32,664 nt of DNA from a virus: the UHGV virus genome UHGV-2169520; one strand, 5' to 3'. Each line of letters begins with the position of its first letter. Within the stretch, counting starts at the first letter, position 1. Of this stretch, positions 725 to 32,664 are shown piece after piece. A program made the position numbers and the translations under genes. The notes below the pieces were generated by a model. That model was not told the origin of the DNA. It did no database searches and was given only the letters and a program-made list of their open reading frames with translations.

Positions 725-821
725 AAAAAAATGCCCGCGCTTTGGCGGGCAAAAGACAAGACTTTTCGTTTGTATATCATGGATAATGGACACCCTTCCT
801 GTTGTCAGGTGGCAGGCACCC
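725..821 (-). ncRNA. Candidate small RNA unit B1 (body class alpha)
   Basis: Minus-strand -35 TTGAGA (851-856), 17-bp spacer, -10 TAGATT (828-833); terminator GCCCGCC..GGCGGGC plus U7 (725-750); predicted ~95 nt; no credible ORF. Confidence 0.35.
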
Positions 822-925
822 GTGGTTAATCTACTGTTTTTGTGCTTTTGTCTCAACCCTGAAGTTTTCATGGAAAATCAGGGTTGCTTCATATGTGCCA
901 GGAAGGTGCGGCTATGATAACTGCC

Positions 926-1018
926 AAAAAAAGCCCGCTTTCCGGCGGGCAAAACAGCAATGTGAGTTGTCTGTCATTGATACTGGACAGCCTTCCTGTT
1001 GTCAGGTGGAAGGTACCC
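926..1018 (-). ncRNA. Candidate small RNA unit B2 (body class beta)
   Basis: -35 TTGAGA (1048-1053), 17-bp spacer, -10 TAGATT (1025-1030); terminator hairpin 933-950 plus U-run (926-932 on plus strand); 5' hairpin CCUUCC..GGAAGG. Confidence 0.35.
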
Positions 1019-1122
1019 GTGGTTAATCTACTGTCTTTGTGCTTTTGTCTCAACCCTGAAGTTTTCATGGAAAATCAGGGTTGCTTCATGTGAACCAGGA
1101 AGGTGAGGCGATGGTAACCGCC

Positions 1123-1148
1123 AAAAAAATGCCCGCTTTCCGGCGGGC
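1123..1148 (-). terminator. Intrinsic terminator, minus strand
   Basis: Hairpin GCCCGCTTTCCGGCGGGC 1131-1148 preceded on plus strand by A7 (U-tract on minus strand). Confidence 0.6.
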
Positions 1149-1369
1149 AAAACAAGGAAGTACGGATCATGTATTATTGATTACGAGGCATTCCACCATG
1201 CCCACGTTTAATTTAGCTAGTTTTCATTTTATTCACAATATAGTTACTTATCATATTTATGAACAAAACTGTAATTTCATCTATAGGTATAAGTGATTTG
1301 CATTAACATGTTTCTTCTGTATTGCTGTTGGTTTTCCGATGCTGATATTTATGATACATTCAAGGGCAA

Positions 1370-11876: not shown

Positions 11877-14119
11877 TAAACTGCCCTCACAATATAATTA
11901 AAAGCGATATTGCGCGGTCTGATCGCTATCCATCTGTCTTTTTCATTACTCACCAGCTTACCGGCTCTGGCTATTGCCCATCTGTCAACTGGTTTTGTGC
12001 CGTACAGGATGCCGTTACCGGTTCTGGGTTGATCAGGGGTTATGTTTATGATGTCGTTATCATGTGATGCAAATGAAATCCCTGCCTGAATATCTGCACC
12101 TCCCGCTACGCCGTGGTACGCCTGTATGGCGGTACAAATATATGTTGCTTCCTGTGTGGATAACAATAAGCGTCCCCTGTCAATCATTCGCAGGNNNNNN
12201 NNNNCATCCCATCCACGAATAAATTCCCCGCGCAAATCTGGTAGCCTGAGGTCAGGGTAGGCCACCGCCAGTTTTGGGTATTTTGTACGCGTGAATGCGG
12301 CACCGTTGCACTGTAACCACCCCTCAGGTGGTCTTGACGAAGGCCACGGAACGGGTACGCCAACTGGCAGCGTCGAGCCTTCTCCTAAACCAAAGTAATC
12401 AAGAATATCTTTTATGCTTTGTTTACCCATGATGACGCGGGCAACAGACGAAAAAACAGGGGCGTCTGTGATCTGAGCCCAGCGATGAGTGTGGGCTGCC
12501 GAGGCTTTGCTGTTGGCAAGGTCATACGCAGCTTTAACAGCTTTTGGTGTGGCCGCCAGCGTTTCGGAATTGCTGTTTGTGGCGCTGCTTAGCTGTACGA
12601 TGCCTTTGCGTCCGGTGGTTGCATCCTGTCCTGTATACTTGCTCGTCAGCATATCGTGTAAGGCTTTAACCGCTTTGGGGGTGGCGGCCTCAGTCTCTGA
12701 CTCACTGTTTGTGGCACTGCTCAGCTGTACGGTGCCTTTTGCCGTCAGCGAGGCTGATGGCACNNNNNNNNNNNNNNNNNNNNNNNNNNNNNNNNNNNNN
12801 NNNNNNNNNNNNNNNNNNNNNNNNNNNNNNNNNNNNNNNNNNNNNNNTGTGGCCGCCAGCGTTTCGGAATTGCTGTTTGTATCGCTGCTCAGCTGTACGA
12901 TGCCTTTGCGTCCAGTTGTTGCATCTGTGTTTGTCACCTCCACCCACTCTGACCATGGGCCGTTACCGTTAAAGTTTCCGGTAACTGTCCTGATAAATTT
13001 TCGTGGCGGATCCCAGCTCGTGTATTCATGCTGGCAGAATCCCCATGCACCAACACGGATGCGTAACTCTCCTGCCTTCTCTACAGGATAGTTTCTGTCT
13101 GTTCTCGCACCTGAGTCACTCTGCTGGTAATAATCTCCCGCGTCTTCCTTACGCCCCAGAGTGTTCAGGTCTGTTTCCCCCAGGGATGTTGTTGGCTTCA
13201 CGAACGCCATGCTCAGTGCATCACTTACTGCCTTCGGTGTGGCCGCCAGTGTTTCGGAATTGCTGTTTGTGGCGCTGCTCAGCTGTACGATGCCTTTGCG
13301 TCCGGTGGTTGCATCCTGTCCTGTATACTTGCTCGTCACCATATCGTGTAAGGCTTTAACCGCTTTGGGGGTGGCCGCCTCAGTCTCTGACTCACTGTTT
13401 GTGGCACTGCTCAGCTGTACGGTGCCTTTTGCCGTCAGCGAGGCTGATGGCACACCAGTTATCTGATTCCACGGGTGGGTGTGGCTGGCGGGTGCTTTAC
13501 CGGCTGCAAGGTCATATGCAGCCTTGACGGCCTTCGGTGTGGCGGCCAGTGTTTCAGAGGTGCTGTTTGTGGCGCTGCTCAGTTGGGTGAATCCTTTTTC
13601 TGTCAGTGTCGCGTCAGGGTGGTTACGGGAACGTGCGTGTTCCGCTATTTTCTCATCAATGTAGTCCGTGGTCGGCAGAATTGTTGTTGTGTCCATGACC
13701 AGTTCCACCACGGCGTCGGAGGTGACGGTGATTACTGCACGGAATATCTGCGCCCGCCCTGAACCTTCCTCTCTGGTGGGCTTGTAACTTTCAGCGGTAT
13801 TTCCTACTGCAATCATTGTACCTGTATCATCAAACACACCAATTTCACGCACCCAGAATCCGCCGGTTTCAGGAGGAATGACCAGTTCGGCGATGAGGCG
13901 GTTCGGGTTCTCCGGGTCGGTGAAGACGCGGTTGACAGACTGGCGCCAAACCTCATTGTAAAGCGATGTCTGGTTTTTCTGCGGCTGACGAAGCTCTCCA
14001 TTGCCGTCCCCTACAGCCATGTGCGTAAGGCGTACAGGTCTACCGCCAGGCGCCGTTGTTGCGGCCAGCTTTGCCAGCCCGATGTCGGTGATAAGGGTTC
14101 TGAATTTTCTCGTGCTCAT
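11876..14119 (-). CDS. H: Tail fibre protein; interrupted by two N gaps, internal repeats
   Basis: N-terminus MSTRKFRTLITDIGLAKLAA.. matches P2 gpH; repeated ..ATTGRKGIVQLSSATNSNSETLAATPKAVK.. blocks; C-terminal PDLRGEFIRGWD motif; N runs 12195-12204 and 12764-12847. Confidence 0.85.
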   Translation of the reverse strand: MSTRKFRTLITDIGLAKLAATTAPGGRPVRLTHMAVGDGNGELRQPQKNQTSLYNEVWRQSVNRVFTDPENPNRLIAELVIPPETGGFWVREIGVFDDTGTMIAVGNTAESYKPTREEGSGRAQIFRAVITVTSDAVVELVMDTTTILPTTDYIDEKIAEHARSRNHPDATLTEKGFTQLSSATNSTSETLAATPKAVKAAYDLAAGKAPASHTHPWNQITGVPSASLTAKGTVQLSSATNSESETEAATPKAVKALHDMVTSKYTGQDATTGRKGIVQLSSATNSNSETLAATPKAVSDALSMAFVKPTTSLGETDLNTLGRKEDAGDYYQQSDSGARTDRNYPVEKAGELRIRVGAWGFCQHEYTSWDPPRKFIRTVTGNFNGNGPWSEWVEVTNTDATTGRKGIVQLSSDTNSNSETLAATXXXXXXXXXXXXXXXXXXXXXXXXXXXXVPSASLTAKGTVQLSSATNSESETEAATPKAVKALHDMLTSKYTGQDATTGRKGIVQLSSATNSNSETLAATPKAVKAAYDLANSKASAAHTHRWAQITDAPVFSSVARVIMGKQSIKDILDYFGLGEGSTLPVGVPVPWPSSRPPEGWLQCNGAAFTRTKYPKLAVAYPDLRLPDLRGEFIRGWDXXXXLRMIDRGRLLLSTQEATYICTAIQAYHGVAGGADIQAGISFASHDNDIINITPDQPRTGNGILYGTKPVDRWAIARAGKLVSNEKDRWIAIRPRNIAFNYIVRAV
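12195..12204. other. Assembly gap (10 N) inside tail fibre gene H
   Basis: Run of N. Confidence 0.95.
12764..12847. other. Assembly gap (84 N) inside tail fibre gene H, within the repeated block
   Basis: Run of N flanked by near-identical repeat copies. Confidence 0.95.
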
Positions 14120-14122
14120 GGT

Positions 14123-14686
14123 TCAGTCTTCCGGGTAAATGGTGATGATGTCGCCGTCGTAACCTGCGGCAGCGGCGTAAATGGCACCGTGTATTTCCTG
14201 GATGATACTAAGCCCCACGAGGTGGCGGCTGACGGGGCGCGCATCGGCAATCAGACGCTCCATTTCTTCATGCAGCTCTTCACTTACTCCGGTTTCAAGT
14301 GTGCCAATCTCAATGGTGAAGGTCCCGGGCGAGCCGTCAAACTCCCACCATTCTGATACACGGATGAGGTAGCCCAGTGGTTCAACGATGCGGCGGAGTG
14401 CACTGATGGTCCCTTTGTGGCGATGTATCATCCATGCGTCCCGAATCACCTGTCGCCTGGTCTCTTCCGGCCAGTTGCGGTCCCAGCTGTCAACGGAACA
14501 TGCCCATGCAAGGTAGGGCAGGAGGTGAGCAGGGCAGCGGTCCGGCGACCACAGGGTGTCGGCGTCCACCGGTATGGTACTGATGCGTACTCCTGTCGCC
14601 TCTGTGGCGCGCATGAATGGCCCTGCGGACGGTGGAAGCAGTGATGTACTGTGCTGTGCGCTGTCTGTTTTTTTCCTGTCACTCAT
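14123..14686 (-). CDS. I: Baseplate protein I
   Basis: P2 gpI-like; start set at ATG 14686 (SD GGAGG, overlaps J stop). Confidence 0.8.
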   Translation of the reverse strand: MSDRKKTDSAQHSTSLLPPSAGPFMRATEATGVRISTIPVDADTLWSPDRCPAHLLPYLAWACSVDSWDRNWPEETRRQVIRDAWMIHRHKGTISALRRIVEPLGYLIRVSEWWEFDGSPGTFTIEIGTLETGVSEELHEEMERLIADARPVSRHLVGLSIIQEIHGAIYAAAAGYDGDIITIYPED

Positions 14687-15575
14687 TGCGTCCTCCTTCG
14701 CTGATGCTGAATGTGGTACATCTGGCTGCCTGAGTGTCACTGATGGTGATGTTCTGCGTGGGTTTTATGACCTCAACGCGCTGGACACCGTGAACATGCA
14801 GCGCTGCAGTGATGGCTGACAGGGCCACGTCCTGACCGATACGGCCCTGGTCTGCCAGCCATGCACGGAAAGCGGCGTCAGCGGCCGCAAGCATGGGTTC
14901 AGACTCCGGCCCTGGATAAAAATACAGCTTCGCTTCCATTACCCAGTTCACGATGGTAGCACTCTGCACAGTCAGGCGGTCGGCAACCGGGCGCACGTTC
15001 TCGGCATTCAGGGCGGTGCGCACCGTGTTCAGTAACGCCTCACCGGCGGTGCCGTCACCGTCTGCTGACAGGATGGAGACGGTGACTGTGGCCGGTGACG
15101 GGCTGATGGCGCGCGCATCACGGACAAGACCGCTTGCGCTCCGGGCAAAATACTCATACGCGCCGGACGGTCCGGCCACACTCAGGCCGTCCCAGGCTGA
15201 CTGGGCACGCAGACGCAGCGATGTGTCGCTTTCCATCACTGCTTCCGTGGTATCAGTGGCCGGATGAATGACCAGGCGGCGGGTGTTGTTGTTGGCGGCC
15301 AGATTGTCCAGGTCACTGCCCCGGCTGTGGCTGAGCATGCAGGCGCGGGCGGCTTCATTGATGCGCTGGCGAAGCAGCATTTCACGAAAGGCCATGGCCT
15401 GGGAAATGATGTTCAATGGCTCGGATTCCAGAGTAAGGGCACGGGTGACGGCGGCGCGGTATTCTTCCGGGAAGGAGCTCACCATCATGGTTTTAATGTC
15501 TGCCAGGATGGACTCAAAATCCGGCTGCGCGATGATGGCCGGTTCCGGTAACTGTGACAGGTCAACGGAAGGCAT
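14679..15575 (-). CDS. J: Baseplate protein J
   Basis: P2 gpJ-like over full length; SD GAGGGAG. Confidence 0.9.
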   Translation of the reverse strand: MPSVDLSQLPEPAIIAQPDFESILADIKTMMVSSFPEEYRAAVTRALTLESEPLNIISQAMAFREMLLRQRINEAARACMLSHSRGSDLDNLAANNNTRRLVIHPATDTTEAVMESDTSLRLRAQSAWDGLSVAGPSGAYEYFARSASGLVRDARAISPSPATVTVSILSADGDGTAGEALLNTVRTALNAENVRPVADRLTVQSATIVNWVMEAKLYFYPGPESEPMLAAADAAFRAWLADQGRIGQDVALSAITAALHVHGVQRVEVIKPTQNITISDTQAARCTTFSISEGGRNE

Positions 15576-19796: not shown

Positions 19797-20564
19797 TTAA
19801 CCACGTTTCGCCTTCGCTTTCGCCTTCGGCGTCGTGGTCTGTTCTCTGGTTGTATCTTTCTGTGCCGCAGGCTCCTGTGCGGCAGCGGCTTCATCCTGTC
19901 CGGCCTTTTTCAGGGCCCGTGAAAGCGTGGCAATCTCACGTTTTACCCCCGCATTCGGGTTAAGGTGCATTGCCTCACGGAACAGCTTCAGACTCACCGC
20001 CATGCTGTCGGCATCGGTCAGGCCACGACGGGCAAAGGCGCATGCCTTGCACAGCTTGGCGCGGACCTCATCGGGCATGTCCCGGTTCGCGACAATTTGC
20101 CAGAGGGTGTCCAGCGGTTCGATGTAGCCGGACAAATCGGCGTGTGCATCCGTTCCGGCCTGTGTCAGAACAGGGTTGCAGATTTCCTCGGTCAGTACCG
20201 TGGCTGCCGTACGCCCGAAGTTGTCAGGCATCGTGAGGTTGTGGCGAACCACATAATCCCCGATGCGCAGTGCAAGCGCCAGGTCGCCACAGTCCACGGC
20301 CCACACCATNNNNNNNNNNNCCTGCTGTCCGCCGTCGGCTTCCAGCGTGCCGTCTATCCAGCCTGCAAAACCCGGCAGCATTTCACGCTTGAGCGCGGCC
20401 TTTGCCGCTTTTGCCTGGACGCCCTTTATGCGTTGCTGTGCCAGGCGCAGACGGTGAAGGACCTGCTCATGAGCCGTGCGGGCCACGATATCCTCGTTTT
20501 CTGCTGCCGTTCCTGCCCGTAAAGCCATCACGTGCTGGAAATGAGCCTGTGCCGGTGTCAGCAT
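19797..20564 (-). CDS. M: Terminase small (endonuclease) subunit M; contains N gap
   Basis: P2 gpM-like; N run 20310-20320 inside the gene. Confidence 0.8.
   Translation of the reverse strand: MLTPAQAHFQHVMALRAGTAAENEDIVARTAHEQVLHRLRLAQQRIKGVQAKAAKAALKREMLPGFAGWIDGTLEADGGQQXXXXMVWAVDCGDLALALRIGDYVVRHNLTMPDNFGRTAATVLTEEICNPVLTQAGTDAHADLSGYIEPLDTLWQIVANRDMPDEVRAKLCKACAFARRGLTDADSMAVSLKLFREAMHLNPNAGVKREIATLSRALKKAGQDEAAAAQEPAAQKDTTREQTTTPKAKAKAKRG
20310..20320. other. Assembly gap (11 N) inside terminase gene M
   Basis: Run of N. Confidence 0.95.
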
Positions 20565-27722: not shown

Positions 27723-28150
27723 TGTTGTTTCCTCCCGTTCTGTGCTGGTCTGGCGAATGAATTGCGTTGTGGTGAAAAGACCATTCGCGCCAGCGCGGCC
27801 TTGTGATTGACTGTGTTCAGTGTTCTGGCCAGTCCGCCGTTGTGCCTGCGTGTCCGCTCTTCGTGATATCTCTGCATGATTTTCCCGGCAGGCGTGCACG
27901 GCTCCGGTTCCTCCGGCGAACGGCGCGGACGAATGACGACAGTCCAGCTATGGCTCTCGCTGCCCGGCCGCCTGTTGAGTATGTCGGCGATGGTGGTCTC
28001 CGTGGTGCGATCGGGGCTGACTATCGTGATTTCCAGCTCGTCGCCCGGTTGTGGCCTTGTGGCAGGCCTGAACAGTGTCAGCACCGGCATACGCTGGCGC
28101 ATGATGGCCTCAAACTGTGGGCGCTGCATGGTGCAGCAAAATCGCGTCAT
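27719..28150 (-). CDS. Hypothetical basic cargo protein (143 aa), coupled to gene A
   Basis: ATGA overlap with A stop (28147-28150); SD GGAGG; Arg-rich C-terminus. Confidence 0.6.
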   Translation of the reverse strand: MTRFCCTMQRPQFEAIMRQRMPVLTLFRPATRPQPGDELEITIVSPDRTTETTIADILNRRPGSESHSWTVVIRPRRSPEEPEPCTPAGKIMQRYHEERTRRHNGGLARTLNTVNHKAALARMVFSPQRNSFARPAQNGRKQQ

Positions 28151-30657
28151 GCTCCCGCCTCCACTGGCTGCTCTGTGATGATGTGACGGGCTGACTCATC
28201 CCAGTACGCTGTTCCCCCGTTATCCAGACGCACACGGGCACCGTTACGCACGGAGATGATGGCCGCGTCAGGCAACTGCACACCCAGCGCATCAAGTTCG
28301 CGGGCGATTTGCGTGTCCGTCGCGGTATCCGCAGGCACGACAATCCCCACCCTTACAGGGGTGTCAGATGCCGGTGTGGTGTCGTTTTGTCCGGTTTTTG
28401 CGCCCGACGGCTGATTTTTAATCTGATTACGCAGTTTTCTCCGATCGCCCCTGCTTAACGTATTCAGCCAGCTTTCCAGGTTCTCTTCGGGAAGCGTCAG
28501 TCGTCCGGGGTCCTGCCTGTTTTCTGGTCCGTGATTGTCTGTTTTTTCATCCCGGGGACAGTTATTGCCACGAGTCCAAGGGGCGACGGGGTCGCCCTGA
28601 AGGTCAAAACCCTCGCCCGTGCGGTTGTCTGGTGTTGTTTCTTTTTTAACCAGTTTCCACTCGTCCGGATGGGTGCATATGGTGTACCGCTCTCCGAGCG
28701 ACGGGGCGCAGATTCCGTAGATACGTTGAGGGAACTCACCGTAGTCGTTGGCTTCGTCTGCGGTTTCGTATGCGGTGCGGACCAGATACTGGTTGCGCGG
28801 AATGAGCACACCACCCTGTTTCATGATGTAGGTGGCAAAACATCCCACATCTGCGGCAGCCATAATGGCGTCAATATCGTCATGATCGAGGTGCTTCGGT
28901 GATGCCGGGTTGCGCTCCATCTGGCTTGCAAGGCGGCGGAGTTCACGCCATACCTGGCGGGGCGGAATGCCGAAAAACTGGAACTGACGGATGCGGTGAA
29001 GGCTTGCCCAGGCAATGGCGTTCTCCACGGTTTCCGCCATGGTTTTCCCGGATTCCTCATCAACGTAAGGTTTTCCGGTTTTCGGATCATTGTTGTGGAA
29101 AGCGCTGGCGTCCAGGTTCTTACCGATATAGGTTGCGATATAGCTTGCCGGTGTGCCTTTTTCCGGGTCTATCTTCTCGCATTTAAAGCGCGGTGAAATA
29201 TCGTCCCCCAGTTCGTGGCGATCTGATTTAATTGCTGCTTCGCGCATAATTTCGATGATGCGCTCTGCGTTCTCCGGGGAAGTGAATACCAGCATATGCC
29301 AGTGTGGCGTGCCGTCATGGTGTGGCTCAGCGGTTCGCACGCCGTACCAGCCCAGCCCCTCTTTTTTTATTTTTTTTCTTACGGCTGCGAAGAAGTCGTA
29401 AACCAGATAATCACTGGCATCTCGTACTGTGGCACCGTTGTATTTCGGGTTCAGGCTGCCGTTCTCGTTCACGCTGTGAAAGCGGGAAGGGGTGGTTACT
29501 GTGATGAAGAATGCGACGTCAGCCCGTAATTCGGCCACCATCTCCATCCCTCTGACGCAGACCATCATTTCATTGCGGCGGTTGCGTGGATTACCCAGGC
29601 CAGCCCAGTACACGTCCTCCAGACTCAGGCGCTCGCCGTCTTCGTTTTCAATATCCCAGCTTTTGAGAAAGTCACGGGTGCGCTGGCGCTTCTCGCGGAA
29701 CTCCAGTAGTGACTCATGGCTGATATAGGGGGATTGTTTACGTGACACTCTGCCGGCGGCGCGCAGTAACTCCTCCCGCCAGAGATCGGCGACGTGGCGT
29801 AACTGGTTGTTCCACCAGGTCGCGCAGGTGATGCGCAGTACCGCACCCGGAACCCGTTCAGGGTCCGGCGGTGTGCGTCGGTTGTGCCTGATTTCGAGTT
29901 CCGGCCAGTATGGCGGGACCACGCCCAGAATTAAGGCTGTGCGTGCCACCTTCTGGTAGGCCAGCAGCCAGATAACCGGGCTGTCATTATCCTTGCCTGT
30001 CCGTTCAAGAACTTCATCACATATGCGTTCAAATTCTGCGGCGAATGCCTGGGCTGTCAGTGTGGCGATGCGCTGGATTTCGTCACGGGTGAGTTGCGGC
30101 AGTGTGAGCAGTTCTTCAAGGCGATGGCGCACGACGGTGGTTTTGAATGCCGGCGTTGCAAAGCGGTCGTTAACCCTTTCAATACGTTTCAGGCGCGCAC
30201 GCAGTCCACGGCGAACGAAATTATCGGCCACGTATGCGCTGTTGTTTTTTACACCTTCACTGCGGGCACTTTGCTGTTTCCGGTTCAGTCGTGCCAGATC
30301 ACGGATCAACACACTGGCAAGAAACGAGGGCAGGGTGCGAAGTTCGGCTATCGCCTCCGATACCGCCGTTGGCGGATTTTCGCGTCTGTGTCGTGCCAGC
30401 TTATCCAGCCTTATCTGCCGCTCTTCGTCCCGGTGAAGGTGTGAATTAATTTGCTTACCTTTGTCCGTGGTTGTCAGGAAGGCCACGGTTTCTTCATCCA
30501 GCCGGGCCTCAGTGCGAATGTCTTCGGTGAGGTAGTCACGGATTGCCCGTTGTAATGCGGTTGGCTTCTGCGGTAATGCTCTGCCGAATGTCTCAGGATC
30601 AATAACCGGCAGCGGGGCGTTCCACGGGTACGCCAGGTGCGTGTGGTGATGGCTCAT
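28147..30657 (-). CDS. A: Replication initiation endonuclease A
   Basis: ..YGVRTAEPHHDGTPHWHMLVF.., ..WASLHRIRQFQFFGIP.., ..YGICAP.. blocks as in P2 gpA. Confidence 0.9.
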   Translation of the reverse strand: MSHHHTHLAYPWNAPLPVIDPETFGRALPQKPTALQRAIRDYLTEDIRTEARLDEETVAFLTTTDKGKQINSHLHRDEERQIRLDKLARHRRENPPTAVSEAIAELRTLPSFLASVLIRDLARLNRKQQSARSEGVKNNSAYVADNFVRRGLRARLKRIERVNDRFATPAFKTTVVRHRLEELLTLPQLTRDEIQRIATLTAQAFAAEFERICDEVLERTGKDNDSPVIWLLAYQKVARTALILGVVPPYWPELEIRHNRRTPPDPERVPGAVLRITCATWWNNQLRHVADLWREELLRAAGRVSRKQSPYISHESLLEFREKRQRTRDFLKSWDIENEDGERLSLEDVYWAGLGNPRNRRNEMMVCVRGMEMVAELRADVAFFITVTTPSRFHSVNENGSLNPKYNGATVRDASDYLVYDFFAAVRKKIKKEGLGWYGVRTAEPHHDGTPHWHMLVFTSPENAERIIEIMREAAIKSDRHELGDDISPRFKCEKIDPEKGTPASYIATYIGKNLDASAFHNNDPKTGKPYVDEESGKTMAETVENAIAWASLHRIRQFQFFGIPPRQVWRELRRLASQMERNPASPKHLDHDDIDAIMAAADVGCFATYIMKQGGVLIPRNQYLVRTAYETADEANDYGEFPQRIYGICAPSLGERYTICTHPDEWKLVKKETTPDNRTGEGFDLQGDPVAPWTRGNNCPRDEKTDNHGPENRQDPGRLTLPEENLESWLNTLSRGDRRKLRNQIKNQPSGAKTGQNDTTPASDTPVRVGIVVPADTATDTQIARELDALGVQLPDAAIISVRNGARVRLDNGGTAYWDESARHIITEQPVEAGA

Positions 30658-30662
30658 TCCGC

Positions 30663-31076
30663 TTACTCCCCTGCTGTTGCCTTCTCAAATGCAGCCCGGT
30701 ACAGCACAAGAAGGCGCTGGTATTCAGCGATAAAGTCTTCTGCTGTTTTAATCCCTTTCACGACCACGCTGTGGGTGGTCATTTCCAGAACGAGCACCAT
30801 TTCTGACGATGACCAGCTGATAACGCTGCTGTCGCACCCGTTGATGTGGAACAGGCCCAGCACCATGCTGTGGTTCTGGTCTCTGACATCCACGCGGTAA
30901 CGGTCATCAACGGTGAAGGAAAAATTCCCGTATGTGGTGGCGCTGCTGGCGGCCTGTTTACAGGCGCGGCGGTAATAGTCATGCAGGTCATTGAGACGGG
31001 AAGCGAGGCGTGGATCCACCGCCCACATCCAGTTAAAAAAATCCTGAATATCTGAAAGTCCCTTAACGCTCTTCAT
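30663..31076 (-). CDS. Hypothetical early-operon protein (137 aa)
   Basis: SD GGAGG 5 nt before ATG; stop 5 nt before A start. Confidence 0.6.
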   Translation of the reverse strand: MKSVKGLSDIQDFFNWMWAVDPRLASRLNDLHDYYRRACKQAASSATTYGNFSFTVDDRYRVDVRDQNHSMVLGLFHINGCDSSVISWSSSEMVLVLEMTTHSVVVKGIKTAEDFIAEYQRLLVLYRAAFEKATAGE

Positions 31077-31144
31077 GAGAACCTCCGGAAACGGACGTGC
31101 GGAAGCCTCCCGCGTACGGGGGCGGGATGGCTCCGGGATGTTGA

Positions 31145-31372
31145 TTAGTGGTGGTAGTGCTGGTTAATGAGGTCCTGCAGCTTGCGCAGGTCATCCGCCA
31201 GGTAGCTGAATACAGCGGCGGAATACATGTTTGACAGTGCGTGGCTGCGCTCATGCAGCATATTGATGTGCATGATATGCGCGACGCGGAATGCGCGGGA
31301 AAGTCTGCGGTTGATTTCAGTCTGGATGTGACGACGCGCAGCGTATGCGCGCTGTTGTTTGCGGTTTGCCAT
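31145..31372 (-). CDS. Hypothetical small basic early protein (75 aa)
   Basis: SD AAGAGG upstream; first gene after the control region. Confidence 0.5.
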   Translation of the reverse strand: MANRKQQRAYAARRHIQTEINRRLSRAFRVAHIMHINMLHERSHALSNMYSAAVFSYLADDLRKLQDLINQHYHH

Positions 31373-31419
31373 GGTGTTTGGCCTCTTCGTTTGTGAGTTT
31401 TTGGATACTCACCATCCAG

Positions 31420-31459
31420 AGGTTGCAATTCTGGGTGGCGAGACGTACAGGGTTGCAAC
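31420..31459. promoter_or_regulatory. Palindromic GGTTGCAA motifs upstream of the early operon (candidate operators)
   Basis: CCAGA-GGTTGCAAT-TCTGG at 31415-31433 and perfect palindrome GGTTGCAACC at 31450-31459, 30 bp apart; third GGTTGCAA at 31597-31604. Confidence 0.4.
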
Positions 31460-31553
31460 CACCGGCAAACGAAGAAACCGGCCCGACCGAAGTCGGCCCC
31501 GTACGCCCCACCATAATTCTGGTGCGAAAAAGACGTGGCGATACGGTACGCAC

Positions 31554-31573
31554 AAAAAAACCGCTGGCGCGGT
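31554..31573 (-). terminator. Intrinsic terminator, minus strand, downstream of the HTH-protein gene
   Basis: Hairpin ACCGC-TGGC-GCGGT (31560-31573) preceded on plus strand by A7. Confidence 0.55.
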
Positions 31574-31695
31574 TGTGCGCTTCGTTTGTCAGCGGGGGTT
31601 GCAATCCCGGCACCCGTTTTATGAGGTGCAGCGGAAATGTAACCTGACTGATTGCGGCATGGCAAGCGGTTTTTTTGTGTGTGCATAGTGGTTAC

Positions 31696-32250
31696 TCAGT
31701 CCGGTAGCAGTTCGCAAAGCACGGTGTCAGCGGCGGTATATCGTGCGTAAAGCCGGGCGAGGACCCATCTTTTAAGGGATATCCCGGTCGTGTCCCGGAT
31801 GTACTTTCTGATTTCGCTGAATGTCATCCCCTGTTCATCGCGCAGTTCAGTTACCAACTCCACCAGGTGATCGCTGTATCTGGCTCTGTGGTGGAGTTCC
31901 CCGTATTTCCTGAACCGGTACCCTCTTTTTCTCAGGTTCAGTCCCACCGTGGATGTCGAGCGCCCCAGTTCATTCGCGAGTTCCCGGATGGTTTTTGTGT
32001 GGCGATTCCTGATGAGCGTGTTGAGTTCTTTTGTATTCAGGGGGGGTTGTTTGGTGTGGATAACCCCCTGAGAGAGCAAAAGACGGATGCGGCTTCGTAT
32101 TGCTGGCCCGGTTCTCTGAAAGTGTTTTGTCAGTTCTGGTACGGTGTGGGAGGGGTATAAACCGACCAGTAGAGCATCTTCCTGTTGTGTCCAGGCTCTG
32201 ACATGCTTCGGTGGTACACCTGATACACCCATAGGTTTAAGTGCGGGCAT
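31696..32250 (-). CDS. Putative DNA-binding protein with three helix-turn-helix-like repeats (184 aa)
   Basis: Start at ATG 32250 (SD GGAG at 7 nt); segments TVPELTKHFQRTGPAIRSRI, TIRELANELGRSTSTVGLNL, TFSEIRKYIRDTTGISLKRW. Confidence 0.55.
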   Translation of the reverse strand: MPALKPMGVSGVPPKHVRAWTQQEDALLVGLYPSHTVPELTKHFQRTGPAIRSRIRLLLSQGVIHTKQPPLNTKELNTLIRNRHTKTIRELANELGRSTSTVGLNLRKRGYRFRKYGELHHRARYSDHLVELVTELRDEQGMTFSEIRKYIRDTTGISLKRWVLARLYARYTAADTVLCELLPD

Positions 32251-32349
32251 AGTTGTTCTCCGTTGTTCTGTTTTGTGTCGGGGTAATGGTCCGGTTTTTT
32301 CGCCTTCAACCGGAAAAGAAGGGCGTGTTAGCATTGATGAATCCGCCGT

Positions 32350-32664
32350 TCAGTGGATCTGGCGGACACTTTGTTCAACACGCCCGGGGGTAAAGATGTC
32401 TGGCTGCAAAAATTCCACGAGCCAGGTTACCCTGCACTCTGCGCTGATTAGGGGCAGAGCGATGACGATGAGGGATAAAACACCATGCAAAACAACCAAC
32501 GTAAAAAATCGAGAGAACGGGATGAGGTCATGTTCCGTCTCTGGTACAGCTACTGGCTGGAGCGCATCGCGGCGGTGTTCAATCGTCGCCTTGATGCGAT
32601 CATCAACATTTTGATCCTTGCGGCGGGTGCGTTCATCGTAGCCGGCTGGCATTTCGGCTGGGTG
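32350..32664. other. Coding region of unresolved strand at the right edge
   Basis: Minus-strand ORF 32350-32652 (no SD visible, may start beyond window) overlaps a plus-strand frame from ATG 32485 (SD GAGGG) running off the window; both encode a hydrophobic segment. Confidence 0.3.

Follow-up and report, generated by a model that had tools for sequence, protein, structure and literature searches.

Which kind of control is exerted from the gap that precedes the replication genes of the virus genome UHGV-2169520? The stretch analyzed here, referred to as the window, comprises 32,664 nucleotides (nt), and the gap spans its positions 31373-31695 (323 nt). It is bounded by two minus-strand genes, a 75-amino-acid (aa) open reading frame (ORF; 31372..31145) and an ORF of the helix-turn-helix (HTH) type (32334..31696). 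A preliminary description of this DNA had pointed out three GGTTGCAA motifs in the gap and taken them as operators for a repressor that was missing from the window. Our analysis leads to a different answer: the gap very probably represents an antisense-RNA control module of the P4/P1 type, encoded by the minus strand within the early operon of an Escherichia coli prophage of the P88-like group (P2 family). The GGTTGCAA motifs are RNA elements and not protein operators; they form one half of a two-part address, the other half of which is a second triple, CAAACGAAG.

Two RNA genes and four target sites in the gap

All three GGTTGCAA copies were found at the places described (31421-31428, 31451-31458 and 31597-31604), with no further copy in the window. 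The first is indeed flanked by CCAGA/TCTGG (31416-31434), and the second is part of a perfect 10-bp palindrome, GGTTGCAACC at 31451-31460, which arises from a second GGTTGCAA copy at 31453-31460 on the other strand. Chance alone can produce clustering of this kind: at least four matches were present in 23 of 100 shuffled versions of the window, and in first-order Markov simulations some 8-mer was present three times within 200 nt in 57% of the windows. The triple is held to be real because it is accompanied by a second, interleaved 9-mer triple, by two Rfam matches above the gathering threshold and by covariation across three sites. This second triple (CAAACGAAG / CTTCGTTTG at 31385, 31466 and 31580), overlooked in the preliminary description, shows the same layout as the first, in the order target-antisense-target, and represents the sole copies in 32.6 kb.

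On the minus strand, two Rfam families match the gap over the full length of their models, and both triples fall into the RNAs thus delineated or into the leader of the following gene. The elements of the module are as follows.

31636..31665, minus strand: promoter-like site with -35 TTGCCA (31665..31660), an 18-nt spacer and -10 TACATT (31641..31636)
31554..31629, minus strand: IsrK-like leader RNA (Rfam RF01394 isrK, 61.9 bits, gathering 50, model positions 1-77/77)
31597..31604, minus strand: a1 target UUGCAACC in the loop of hairpin 2 of the leader, formerly the third motif; covaries with a'
31580..31588, minus strand: b1 target CAAACGAAG, single-stranded between hairpin 2 and the terminator; covaries with b'
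31554..31574, minus strand: intrinsic terminator of the leader, AACCGC-GCCA-GCGGUU followed by U7, forming the 3' end of the isrK model
31431..31518, minus strand: C4/CI-like antisense RNA (Rfam RF01695 C4, 79.3 bits, gathering 45, model positions 1-87/87)
31466..31477, minus strand: b' element UUUCUUCGUUUG, the 12-nt C4 loop, with the core CUUCGUUUG at 31474..31466
31453..31460, minus strand: a' element GGUUGCAA in the unpaired C4 junction, within the 10-bp palindrome
31428..31421, minus strand: a2 target UUGCAACC, formerly the first motif, in the loop of the CCAGA/UCUGG hairpin (31416..31434) just after C4
31393..31385, minus strand, with AGG to 31382: b2 target CAAACGAAG, overlapping the Shine-Dalgarno sequence AAGAGG, 9 nt before the ATG at 31372

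The minimum free energy fold of the C4-like RNA equals the Rfam structure (-46.4 kcal/mol, z -5.1, 0/200 shuffles as good). A 17-bp stem closes the structure; it encloses a tetraloop hairpin and a second hairpin whose 12-nt loop holds b', followed by a single-stranded junction with a', and the RNA ends in a 3' CCCA tail. The IsrK-like leader (-30.8 kcal/mol, z -2.3) is laid out as hairpin 1, hairpin 2 presenting a1, single-stranded b1 and the intrinsic terminator, and its equivalent is the seqA region of P4. In the predicted fold, b' and a' are unpaired in C4, a1 and a2 lie in hairpin loops, and b1 and b2 are unpaired. Complements of a' (8 bp) and of b' (9-12 bp) occur on the same strand on either side of C4, as a1 and b1 upstream and as a2 and b2 downstream; b2 can form 12 pairs with the C4 loop, two of them G.U, and b1 forms nine.

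The predicted transcript start near 31629 is position 1 of the isrK model, and the internal promoter would lie about 60 nt downstream of the stop codon of the HTH gene. Both hexamers are invariant in the 51 related loci described below despite a differing upstream gene, and the TTGCCA-18-TACATT site is a putative promoter by analogy with P1, P4 and Gifsy-1. The minus-strand terminator (stem 31574..31559, then seven U down to 31554) was confirmed, but it had been regarded as the divider of the HTH gene from the early operon; instead, it is the terminator of the IsrK-like leader RNA predicted to start at the internal promoter. Partial read-through of this terminator, as known for the Gifsy-1 IsrK (PMC4825925), would be needed to make C4 and the mRNA. 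Of the operator/promoter region proposed earlier, the regulatory character thus stands: an internal terminator and a promoter-like site do precede the replication part of the early operon. The motifs, however, turn out to be the single-stranded stretches through which a C4/CI-type antisense RNA pairs with its two targets.

Covariation among related loci

Using the 75-aa protein as a handle, we collected 80 loci from IMG/VR in addition to the phages P88 and Shae_phiSM and aligned 51 distinct sequences. The module is located upstream of the 75-aa homologue in all 82 loci. Across the alignment, the promoter hexamers, IsrK hairpin 1, the terminator, the C4 closing stem with the tetraloop hairpin and the start-codon context are near-invariant. 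The a and b blocks, in contrast, are hypervariable, and their changes are matched across the three sites; the motif search in related loci suggested in the preliminary description thus revealed covariation in place of a conserved motif sequence. We distinguished six a types and 12 b types in 20 combinations among these P88-like loci, and the two address halves therefore reassort. For example, the address of P88 is UUUCCACC for a and CAACUACAG for b. The 3' end of b2 overlaps an AGAGG or GGGG Shine-Dalgarno sequence in every type.

For the upstream targets (a1:a' and b1:b'), 95.5% of the cells are paired, compared to 26-53% with slid partners and 68.9% in shuffles; compensatory changes were found in 11 of 17 pairs, and the covariation score of 0.633 (versus 0.124) was reached by 0/500 shuffles. 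The b1:b' pairing alone accounts for 99.3% paired cells and compensatory changes in 7/9 pairs. Similar values were obtained for the downstream targets (a':a2 and b':b2), with 90.5% paired cells versus 41-51% with slid partners, 11/20 compensatory pairs and a score of 0.534 versus 0.113, again reached by 0/500 shuffles. Within the 7-pair core of a':a2, all 357 cells of the 51 loci are Watson-Crick pairs. Altogether, 52 of 53 distinct upstream regions (window included) carry cognate sets, the exception being the recombinant locus L077. Outside this locus, every non-Watson-Crick cell of the cores is either a G.U, read on the RNA-sense strand, or a U.C located in b2, and A.C does not occur, a pattern that RNA pairing predicts but copied DNA sites do not. 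Of note, the shuffle control can be exceeded through relatedness alone; that relatedness is the cause here is made unlikely by the slid-partner control and by the occurrence of several pair types per position.

Two loci deviate from the common arrangement. In L077 (151-510), the IsrK part carries a1/b1 of the type TTTCCAC / CAAACGAAG, while C4, a2 and b2 are of another type (GTTGAGAA / CTTTGCTCT). The a1/b1 type hence differs from the C4 type, and the leader is unable to pair with its own C4. In L038 (55-429), a P88-like C4 variant contains a 17-nt insertion and two consecutive b' loops of different types, CTTTGCTCT and CTTGTGTAG, the second of which is matched by b1 and b2. This locus may represent a recombination intermediate or a dual-specificity RNA.

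Proposed mechanism

Based on the arrangement of the elements and on analogy with P1, P4 and Gifsy-1, we propose that the internal promoter (~31665..31636) starts the leader at ~31629 and that part of the transcripts would end at the 31574..31554 terminator, giving a 76-nt IsrK-like RNA with a1 (UUGCAACC) and b1 (CAAACGAAG). The C4/CI-like RNA (31518..31431) would be contained in read-through transcripts, and probably also in those coming from the upstream early promoter, and could, as in the case of P1 c4 and P4 CI, be excised by ribonuclease P (RNase P) along with other nucleases; a 3' CCCA tail after the closing stem is visible here. Once released, it would presumably act as a repressor in trans: b' (CUUCGUUUG) and a' (GGUUGCAA) would pair with b2 and the hairpin-loop a2, and the b2 pairing would cover the Shine-Dalgarno sequence and block translation of the 75-aa, epsilon-like gene. 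Lost translation together with Rho-dependent polarity would then lead to less 137-aa ORF product and less gpA replicase, both encoded further downstream. The leader elements a1/b1, either as IsrK-like RNA or as a segment in cis, would compete for C4 and could serve as a decoy/activator, like the Gifsy-1 IsrK, or as a termination target, like P4 seqA. The a/b sequences would thereby form a two-part specificity address that differs between related phages.

Alternative interpretations

The most obvious alternative follows the preliminary description and considers the GGTTGCAA and CAAACGAAG copies as DNA operators for a sequence-specific regulator, either the upstream HTH protein or an unseen repressor, which would control the promoter of the replication genes. 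Three copies within 184 bp, one of them palindromic, beside a promoter-like site and with an HTH-type gene immediately upstream would fit such a picture, and an inverted copy of a DNA site would also resemble covariation. However, the copies are placed exactly in the unpaired loops of two Rfam-modelled RNAs, the core deviations outside the recombinant locus never include A.C, and the a type is not linked to the class of the upstream gene, each class being found with two to six types. Furthermore, the real C/cox switch of the prophage is found 2.4-4.4 kb away with unrelated repeats, and the homologous elements of P4, P1 and Gifsy-1 act as RNA (PMC3632133, PMC4825925). We consider the operator explanation very improbable, and hardly any weight at all remains for a protein-coding gap. 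Long ORFs do exist on both strands (spanning minus-strand ORFs of 207 aa or 98 aa, and plus-strand ORFs of 100 and 109 aa), and GenBank records of relatives annotate coding sequences there, some as hypothetical, Ash-family or regulator proteins. These ORFs are nevertheless without a Pfam match, Phage_ASH included, and close relatives differ by frame-breaking indels of 1-2 nt (alignment columns 110, 280, 307 and 331-332). The variation is restricted to four short blocks that change as complementary pairs and shows no codon pattern, and RefSeq leaves the gap unannotated.

A different question is how the RNA elements are wired. In an arrangement like that of Gifsy-1, the read-through transcript would fold in cis (a1/b1 with a'/b') into a translationally silent form, the IsrK-like RNA would trans-activate the 75-aa ORF, and C4 would be no independent trans-repressor. 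The isrK match of the leader agrees with this wiring, as does the finding that a1/b1 are conserved and covary with a'/b' just as a2/b2 do, and experiments on Gifsy-1 demonstrate such a logic with an anti-repressor as output (PMC4825925). On the other hand, the b':b2 pairing across the Shine-Dalgarno sequence (up to 12 bp) exceeds that of b':b1 (9 bp), which fits direct occlusion by C4 as in P1 and P4; the module lacks a leader ORF like orf45, and the controlled ORF begins right after b2. L077, moreover, keeps C4, a2 and b2 cognate with a1/b1 mismatched, a pattern suggesting that the C4-a2/b2 pairing is under stronger constraint. We therefore regard this wiring as unlikely, although it deserves more attention than operators or a coding gap.

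Several observations nonetheless weigh against the antisense module as proposed above. Since C4 and both target sites would be part of every early transcript, the escape of the replication genes during lytic growth is unexplained. The Gifsy-1 module acts mainly via a cis-inhibitory structure that is relieved by IsrK (PMC4825925), so sign and route could differ here. The match to the promoter consensus is weak (9/12), and sites of this kind are no commoner in the scan than in shuffles. Rfam RF03163 (c4-a1b1) gives no match at E <= 1 in window positions 31250-31800; this region is covered by isrK instead, and P4 itself scores only 44.1 bits on c4-a1b1 versus a gathering threshold of 46.7. The 75-aa ORF attains a marginal 28.2 bits (cut-off 27) on the Pfam family PF25738 (Derepression). 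Finally, the duplex energies of the short a/b helices calculated with ViennaRNA are modestly better than those of shuffled targets (11-92/500 as good), and non-cognate targets of P88 and phiSM score like cognate ones by this measure. As energy alone is no proof of specificity, we based the specificity of the pairing on covariation.

Genes downstream of the module

The module is followed by three genes on the same strand.

31145..31372, minus strand: 75-aa ORF, distant homologue of P4 epsilon ("derepression protein"), directly after b2
30663..31076, minus strand: 137-aa ORF between the epsilon-like gene and gpA (PHROG 3237, function unknown)
28147..30657, minus strand: replication endonuclease gpA, 836 aa (Pfam Phage_GPA, 349 bits; PHROG 91, "nicking at origin of replication")

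The 75-aa ORF and P4 epsilon share 29% identity (BLASTP, E 3e-8), and a comparison of their families with hhalign resulted in a probability of 91.5% (E 8.7e-7). P4 epsilon itself reaches 170 bits on PF25738. Judged by this homology, the 75-aa ORF belongs to the P4 epsilon (anti-repressor) family, in agreement with its RefSeq name, "derepression protein", and by analogy it may have anti-repressor activity. NCBIfam gave no match for the 75-aa ORF or gpA, and a sequence search of the PDB with the 75-aa ORF yielded no meaningful match. Likewise, the 137-aa ORF has no Pfam or NCBIfam match and no similarity to P4 orf151.

Prophage context and the C/cox switch

The window is an E. coli prophage of the P88-like group within the P2 family. 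Its positions 30600-32664 occur at 100% identity in an E. coli chromosome (chicken isolates), adjoining dmsA, and the closest named relatives are P88 and the Citrobacter phage Shae_phiSM (Peduoviridae, Xuanwuvirus). The absence of a divergent repressor gene had been interpreted as a departure from the C/cox layout of P2. However, the last 8.7 kb of the window are identical at 99.97% to an IMG/VR contig (L085), in which the window end is followed by genes for DUF4754 and DUF4761 proteins, Phage_Cox, a divergent HTH_3 repressor of 113 aa and the integrase, and the order in RefSeq is the same. The search for repressor and integrase beyond the window, as suggested earlier, thus located both about 2.4-4.4 kb past its end in the P2 arrangement, and the "missing" P2-type repressor is present in near-identical E. 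coli prophages. The gap itself is not a P2-type C/cox region, as both flanking genes are on the minus strand. The preliminary description had named a repressor outside the window combined with unconserved motifs as evidence against its reading. Taken literally, this is what was found, yet we still hold the motifs to be functional, at the level of RNA.

The C/cox intergenic region of L085 contains no GGTTGCAA; unrelated repeats are found there. At 1429-1531 of this contig, a direct repeat, TCATCAAAA, occurs twice with 10-bp spacing, along with a perfect 22-bp palindrome, AAGATAACCGTACGGTTATCTT; both are candidates for the true operators of the prophage. The early regions of P2 and 186 gave no C4 or isrK match at E <= 0.1, and P88-like phages thus possess the RNA module as an additional layer. 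No LexA box (CTGT-N8-ACAG, at most one mismatch) was detected near the module or in the early region, so that a link to the SOS response is unsupported by sequence. A search of the genome contigs with the HTH protein revealed no relative.

Some further features of the prophage were recorded. A 160-aa ORF without a Pfam family begins in the window (32486-32664, plus strand), is cut by the window end and continues in L085 (4104..4586, minus strand). Embedded in the early operon but oriented against it, with the small early genes on one side and the HTH gene on the other, it resembles an inserted cargo gene (moron). A 197-nt tandem repeat close to the left end of the window (770-1154; 1.9 copies, 91% identity) holds the CAACCCTGA and CAGGAAGG triples of the k-mer cluster test. 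At 15088-15263, CCGGCCAC occurs three times with an exact period of 84 nt (28 codons) inside the minus-strand ORF 14679..15575, a periodicity pointing to a segment repeated in the protein. Masked or unresolved bases appear as runs of N at 12195-12204, 12764-12847 and 20310-20320.

Distribution of C4-type modules

As a broader survey, IMG/VR was scanned for the C4 core with a degenerate pattern in the code of the International Union of Pure and Applied Chemistry (IUPAC). The scan returned 120 loci, including 60 modules with a2 and b2, 47 of which have all four targets. The first ORF after b2 was assigned to the following groups.

Rha-type regulators (lambdoid phages): 21
P4-like ORFs of 63-69 aa: 15
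Probably related group of ORFs with 64-80 aa: 8
Epsilon-like family of 75-76 aa (P88-like phages, window included): 13
Clearer Derepression-family ORF: a single case, L132
Tad2-like ORF: a single case, L203

Within this sample, which is limited, no a' type is shared between P88-like modules and P4-like or lambdoid ones, and two P88-like a' types look polarity-swapped, resembling the complement of P4 or lambdoid types. Searching the genome contigs with P4 epsilon gave six loci, which are too few for a catalogue of satellite addresses.

Two single cases are described here in their own right. The 17.6-kb viral contig L132 carries C4 modules at 249 and 7873, both on the plus strand and with different addresses; one precedes the Derepression-family ORF (49.8 bits) and the other is P88-like. 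This contig may be a satellite beside its helper or a doubly equipped phage. In L203, a four-target C4-type module at ~5886 (plus strand) is located directly upstream of an 85-aa Tad2-like ORF (Thoeris anti-defence, PF11195, 31.6 bits), and a C4-family antisense RNA may gate an anti-defence gene there.

Among complete E. coli genomes, a megablast search with window positions 30600-32664 gave a match in 1221 of 5426, with a coverage of at least 80% in 25; in most of the matching genomes the match is partial and its identity 80-90%. The RefSeq annotation of the gap (L226, 6274-6596; E. coli NZ_CM144243.1) contains no non-coding RNA, even though the scores of both RNAs exceed the Rfam gathering thresholds. 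The Pfam family Phage_ASH (PF10554) matches residues 22-85 of the old P4 "cI" ORF (L097, P4, 8168-8584, minus strand), which correspond to the translated CI RNA/seqC region. PF10554 was used as the "epsilon" marker in a survey of P4 satellites (PMC8628076); the real P4 epsilon is PF25738, not PF10554. The Ash family may partly model a translated RNA gene.

Significance for P88-like phages

This kind of switch is known, but we found no description of it for P2-family or P88-like phages. Full-text searches of the literature yielded no paper linking C4 or isrK with P2-like or Peduoviridae phages, and a term search in the P88 description, the phiSM description and a 2026 survey of P2-like phages returned no mention of antisense RNA. 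As the mechanism class is textbook, with P1 c4 described in 1990, P4 CI in 1995 and IsrK in 2016, specialists will be interested rather than surprised. The P2 family provides the helpers of P4, and a P4-type antisense immunity cassette with an epsilon-family gene is present in P2-family phages as well, directly before the replication genes. A gap that is blank in RefSeq and filled with hypothetical or Ash-family coding sequences in some phage records holds two RNA genes and four target sites. The module offers a testable route to prophage induction and heteroimmunity in the P88-like group, which is found in a sizeable share of complete E. coli genomes. Its combinatorial a/b address code within one genus is a testable feature, and the loci provide a naturally occurring collection of orthogonal RNA addresses, each in two parts and carried by a scaffold that stays constant.

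Beyond this, we put forward a wider and far more tentative proposal. P88-like phages might run a second, RNA-based immunity/induction layer of the P4 type atop C/cox, in which the addresses define heteroimmune specificities and the module is exchanged with P4 satellites. If this were true, the C4/CI RNA would silence both the gpA replicase and an epsilon-type anti-repressor acting on the C repressor of the same phage, with the IsrK-like RNA lifting the block; this could explain why P88 is mitomycin-inducible and P2 is not. The 6 x 12 a/b types, freely reassorted, would define many heteroimmune specificities within one genus and would be kept orthogonal to those used by lambdoid prophages and P4-like satellites in the same host. 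An exchange of the core control module (promoter, seqA, CI, seqC, epsilon) between P4 satellites and the family of their helpers would also be implied.

Comparison with known systems

Four known systems invite comparison with this prophage. With the C/cox switch of P2 and cI/apl of 186, the prophage shares an HTH_3 repressor divergent from a Phage_Cox gene and adjoining int, but that switch is located past the window end and is unrelated to the motifs.

The immI system of P1/P7 is the founding member of the Rfam family C4, which is matched by the RNA found here. In P1, an antisense RNA with a' and b' is cut from a transcript carrying a1/b1 upstream and a2/b2 downstream; b2 is located at the ribosome-binding site, and the output is an anti-repressor. 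According to work attributed to Citron and Schuster (1990), P1 and P7 are reportedly heteroimmune through differences in c4. Unlike here, where an epsilon-like gene and gpA follow, the controlled genes of P1 are icd/ant, and we know of no isrK-type terminated leader in P1. P1 was absent among the blastn matches listed, being too diverged. RNase P processing of the P1 and P4 antisense RNAs is on record as cited in PMC5499578.

In Gifsy-1, the isrK-orf45(STnc1160)-anrP module has its own promoter, a leaky terminator and a downstream C4-like processed RNA, and its anti-repressor output triggers prophage induction (PMC4825925). The locus described here shares the isrK family match, and homologous modules are found in lambdoid and Shiga toxin (Stx) phages upstream of Rha or anti-repressor genes. 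Gifsy-1 differs in its lambdoid host phage, its 45-aa leader ORF, translational coupling and an IsrK shown to be a trans-activator, whereas the module in the window is without a leader ORF.

A close counterpart in layout is P4. According to Barquist et al. (PMC3632133) and Hershko-Shalev et al. (PMC4825925), IsrK and C4 are structural homologues of P4 seqA and CI, and P1, P7 and N15 use similar systems. The P4 immunity region scores 74.9 bits on C4 (CI RNA) and 60.8 bits on isrK (seqA region). P4 is, however, a satellite and the element described here a full P2-family phage with its own C/cox switch; a 65-aa leader ORF separates b2 from epsilon in P4, whereas here the epsilon-like gene comes directly after b2 and is followed by the 137-aa ORF and gpA; and the replication gene is the alpha primase in P4 and the gpA replicase here. 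Control in P4 operates by CI-dependent premature termination. The addresses also differ, with GUGAGAA (a1/a2), UUCUCAC (a'), UUCACAGG (b1/b2) and CCUGUGAA (b') in P4. Both elements nevertheless share the order of promoter, a1b1, terminator, C4 with b' loop and a' junction, a2 hairpin and b2 over the Shine-Dalgarno sequence, with TTGCCT-17-TATAGT of P4 at the place equivalent to the promoter-like site, and both continue with an epsilon-family gene and the replication gene of the element. Around the start codon, the two leaders are collinear almost to the nucleotide, reading CAUCAUGGC in P4 and CACCAUGGC in the P88-like prophage.

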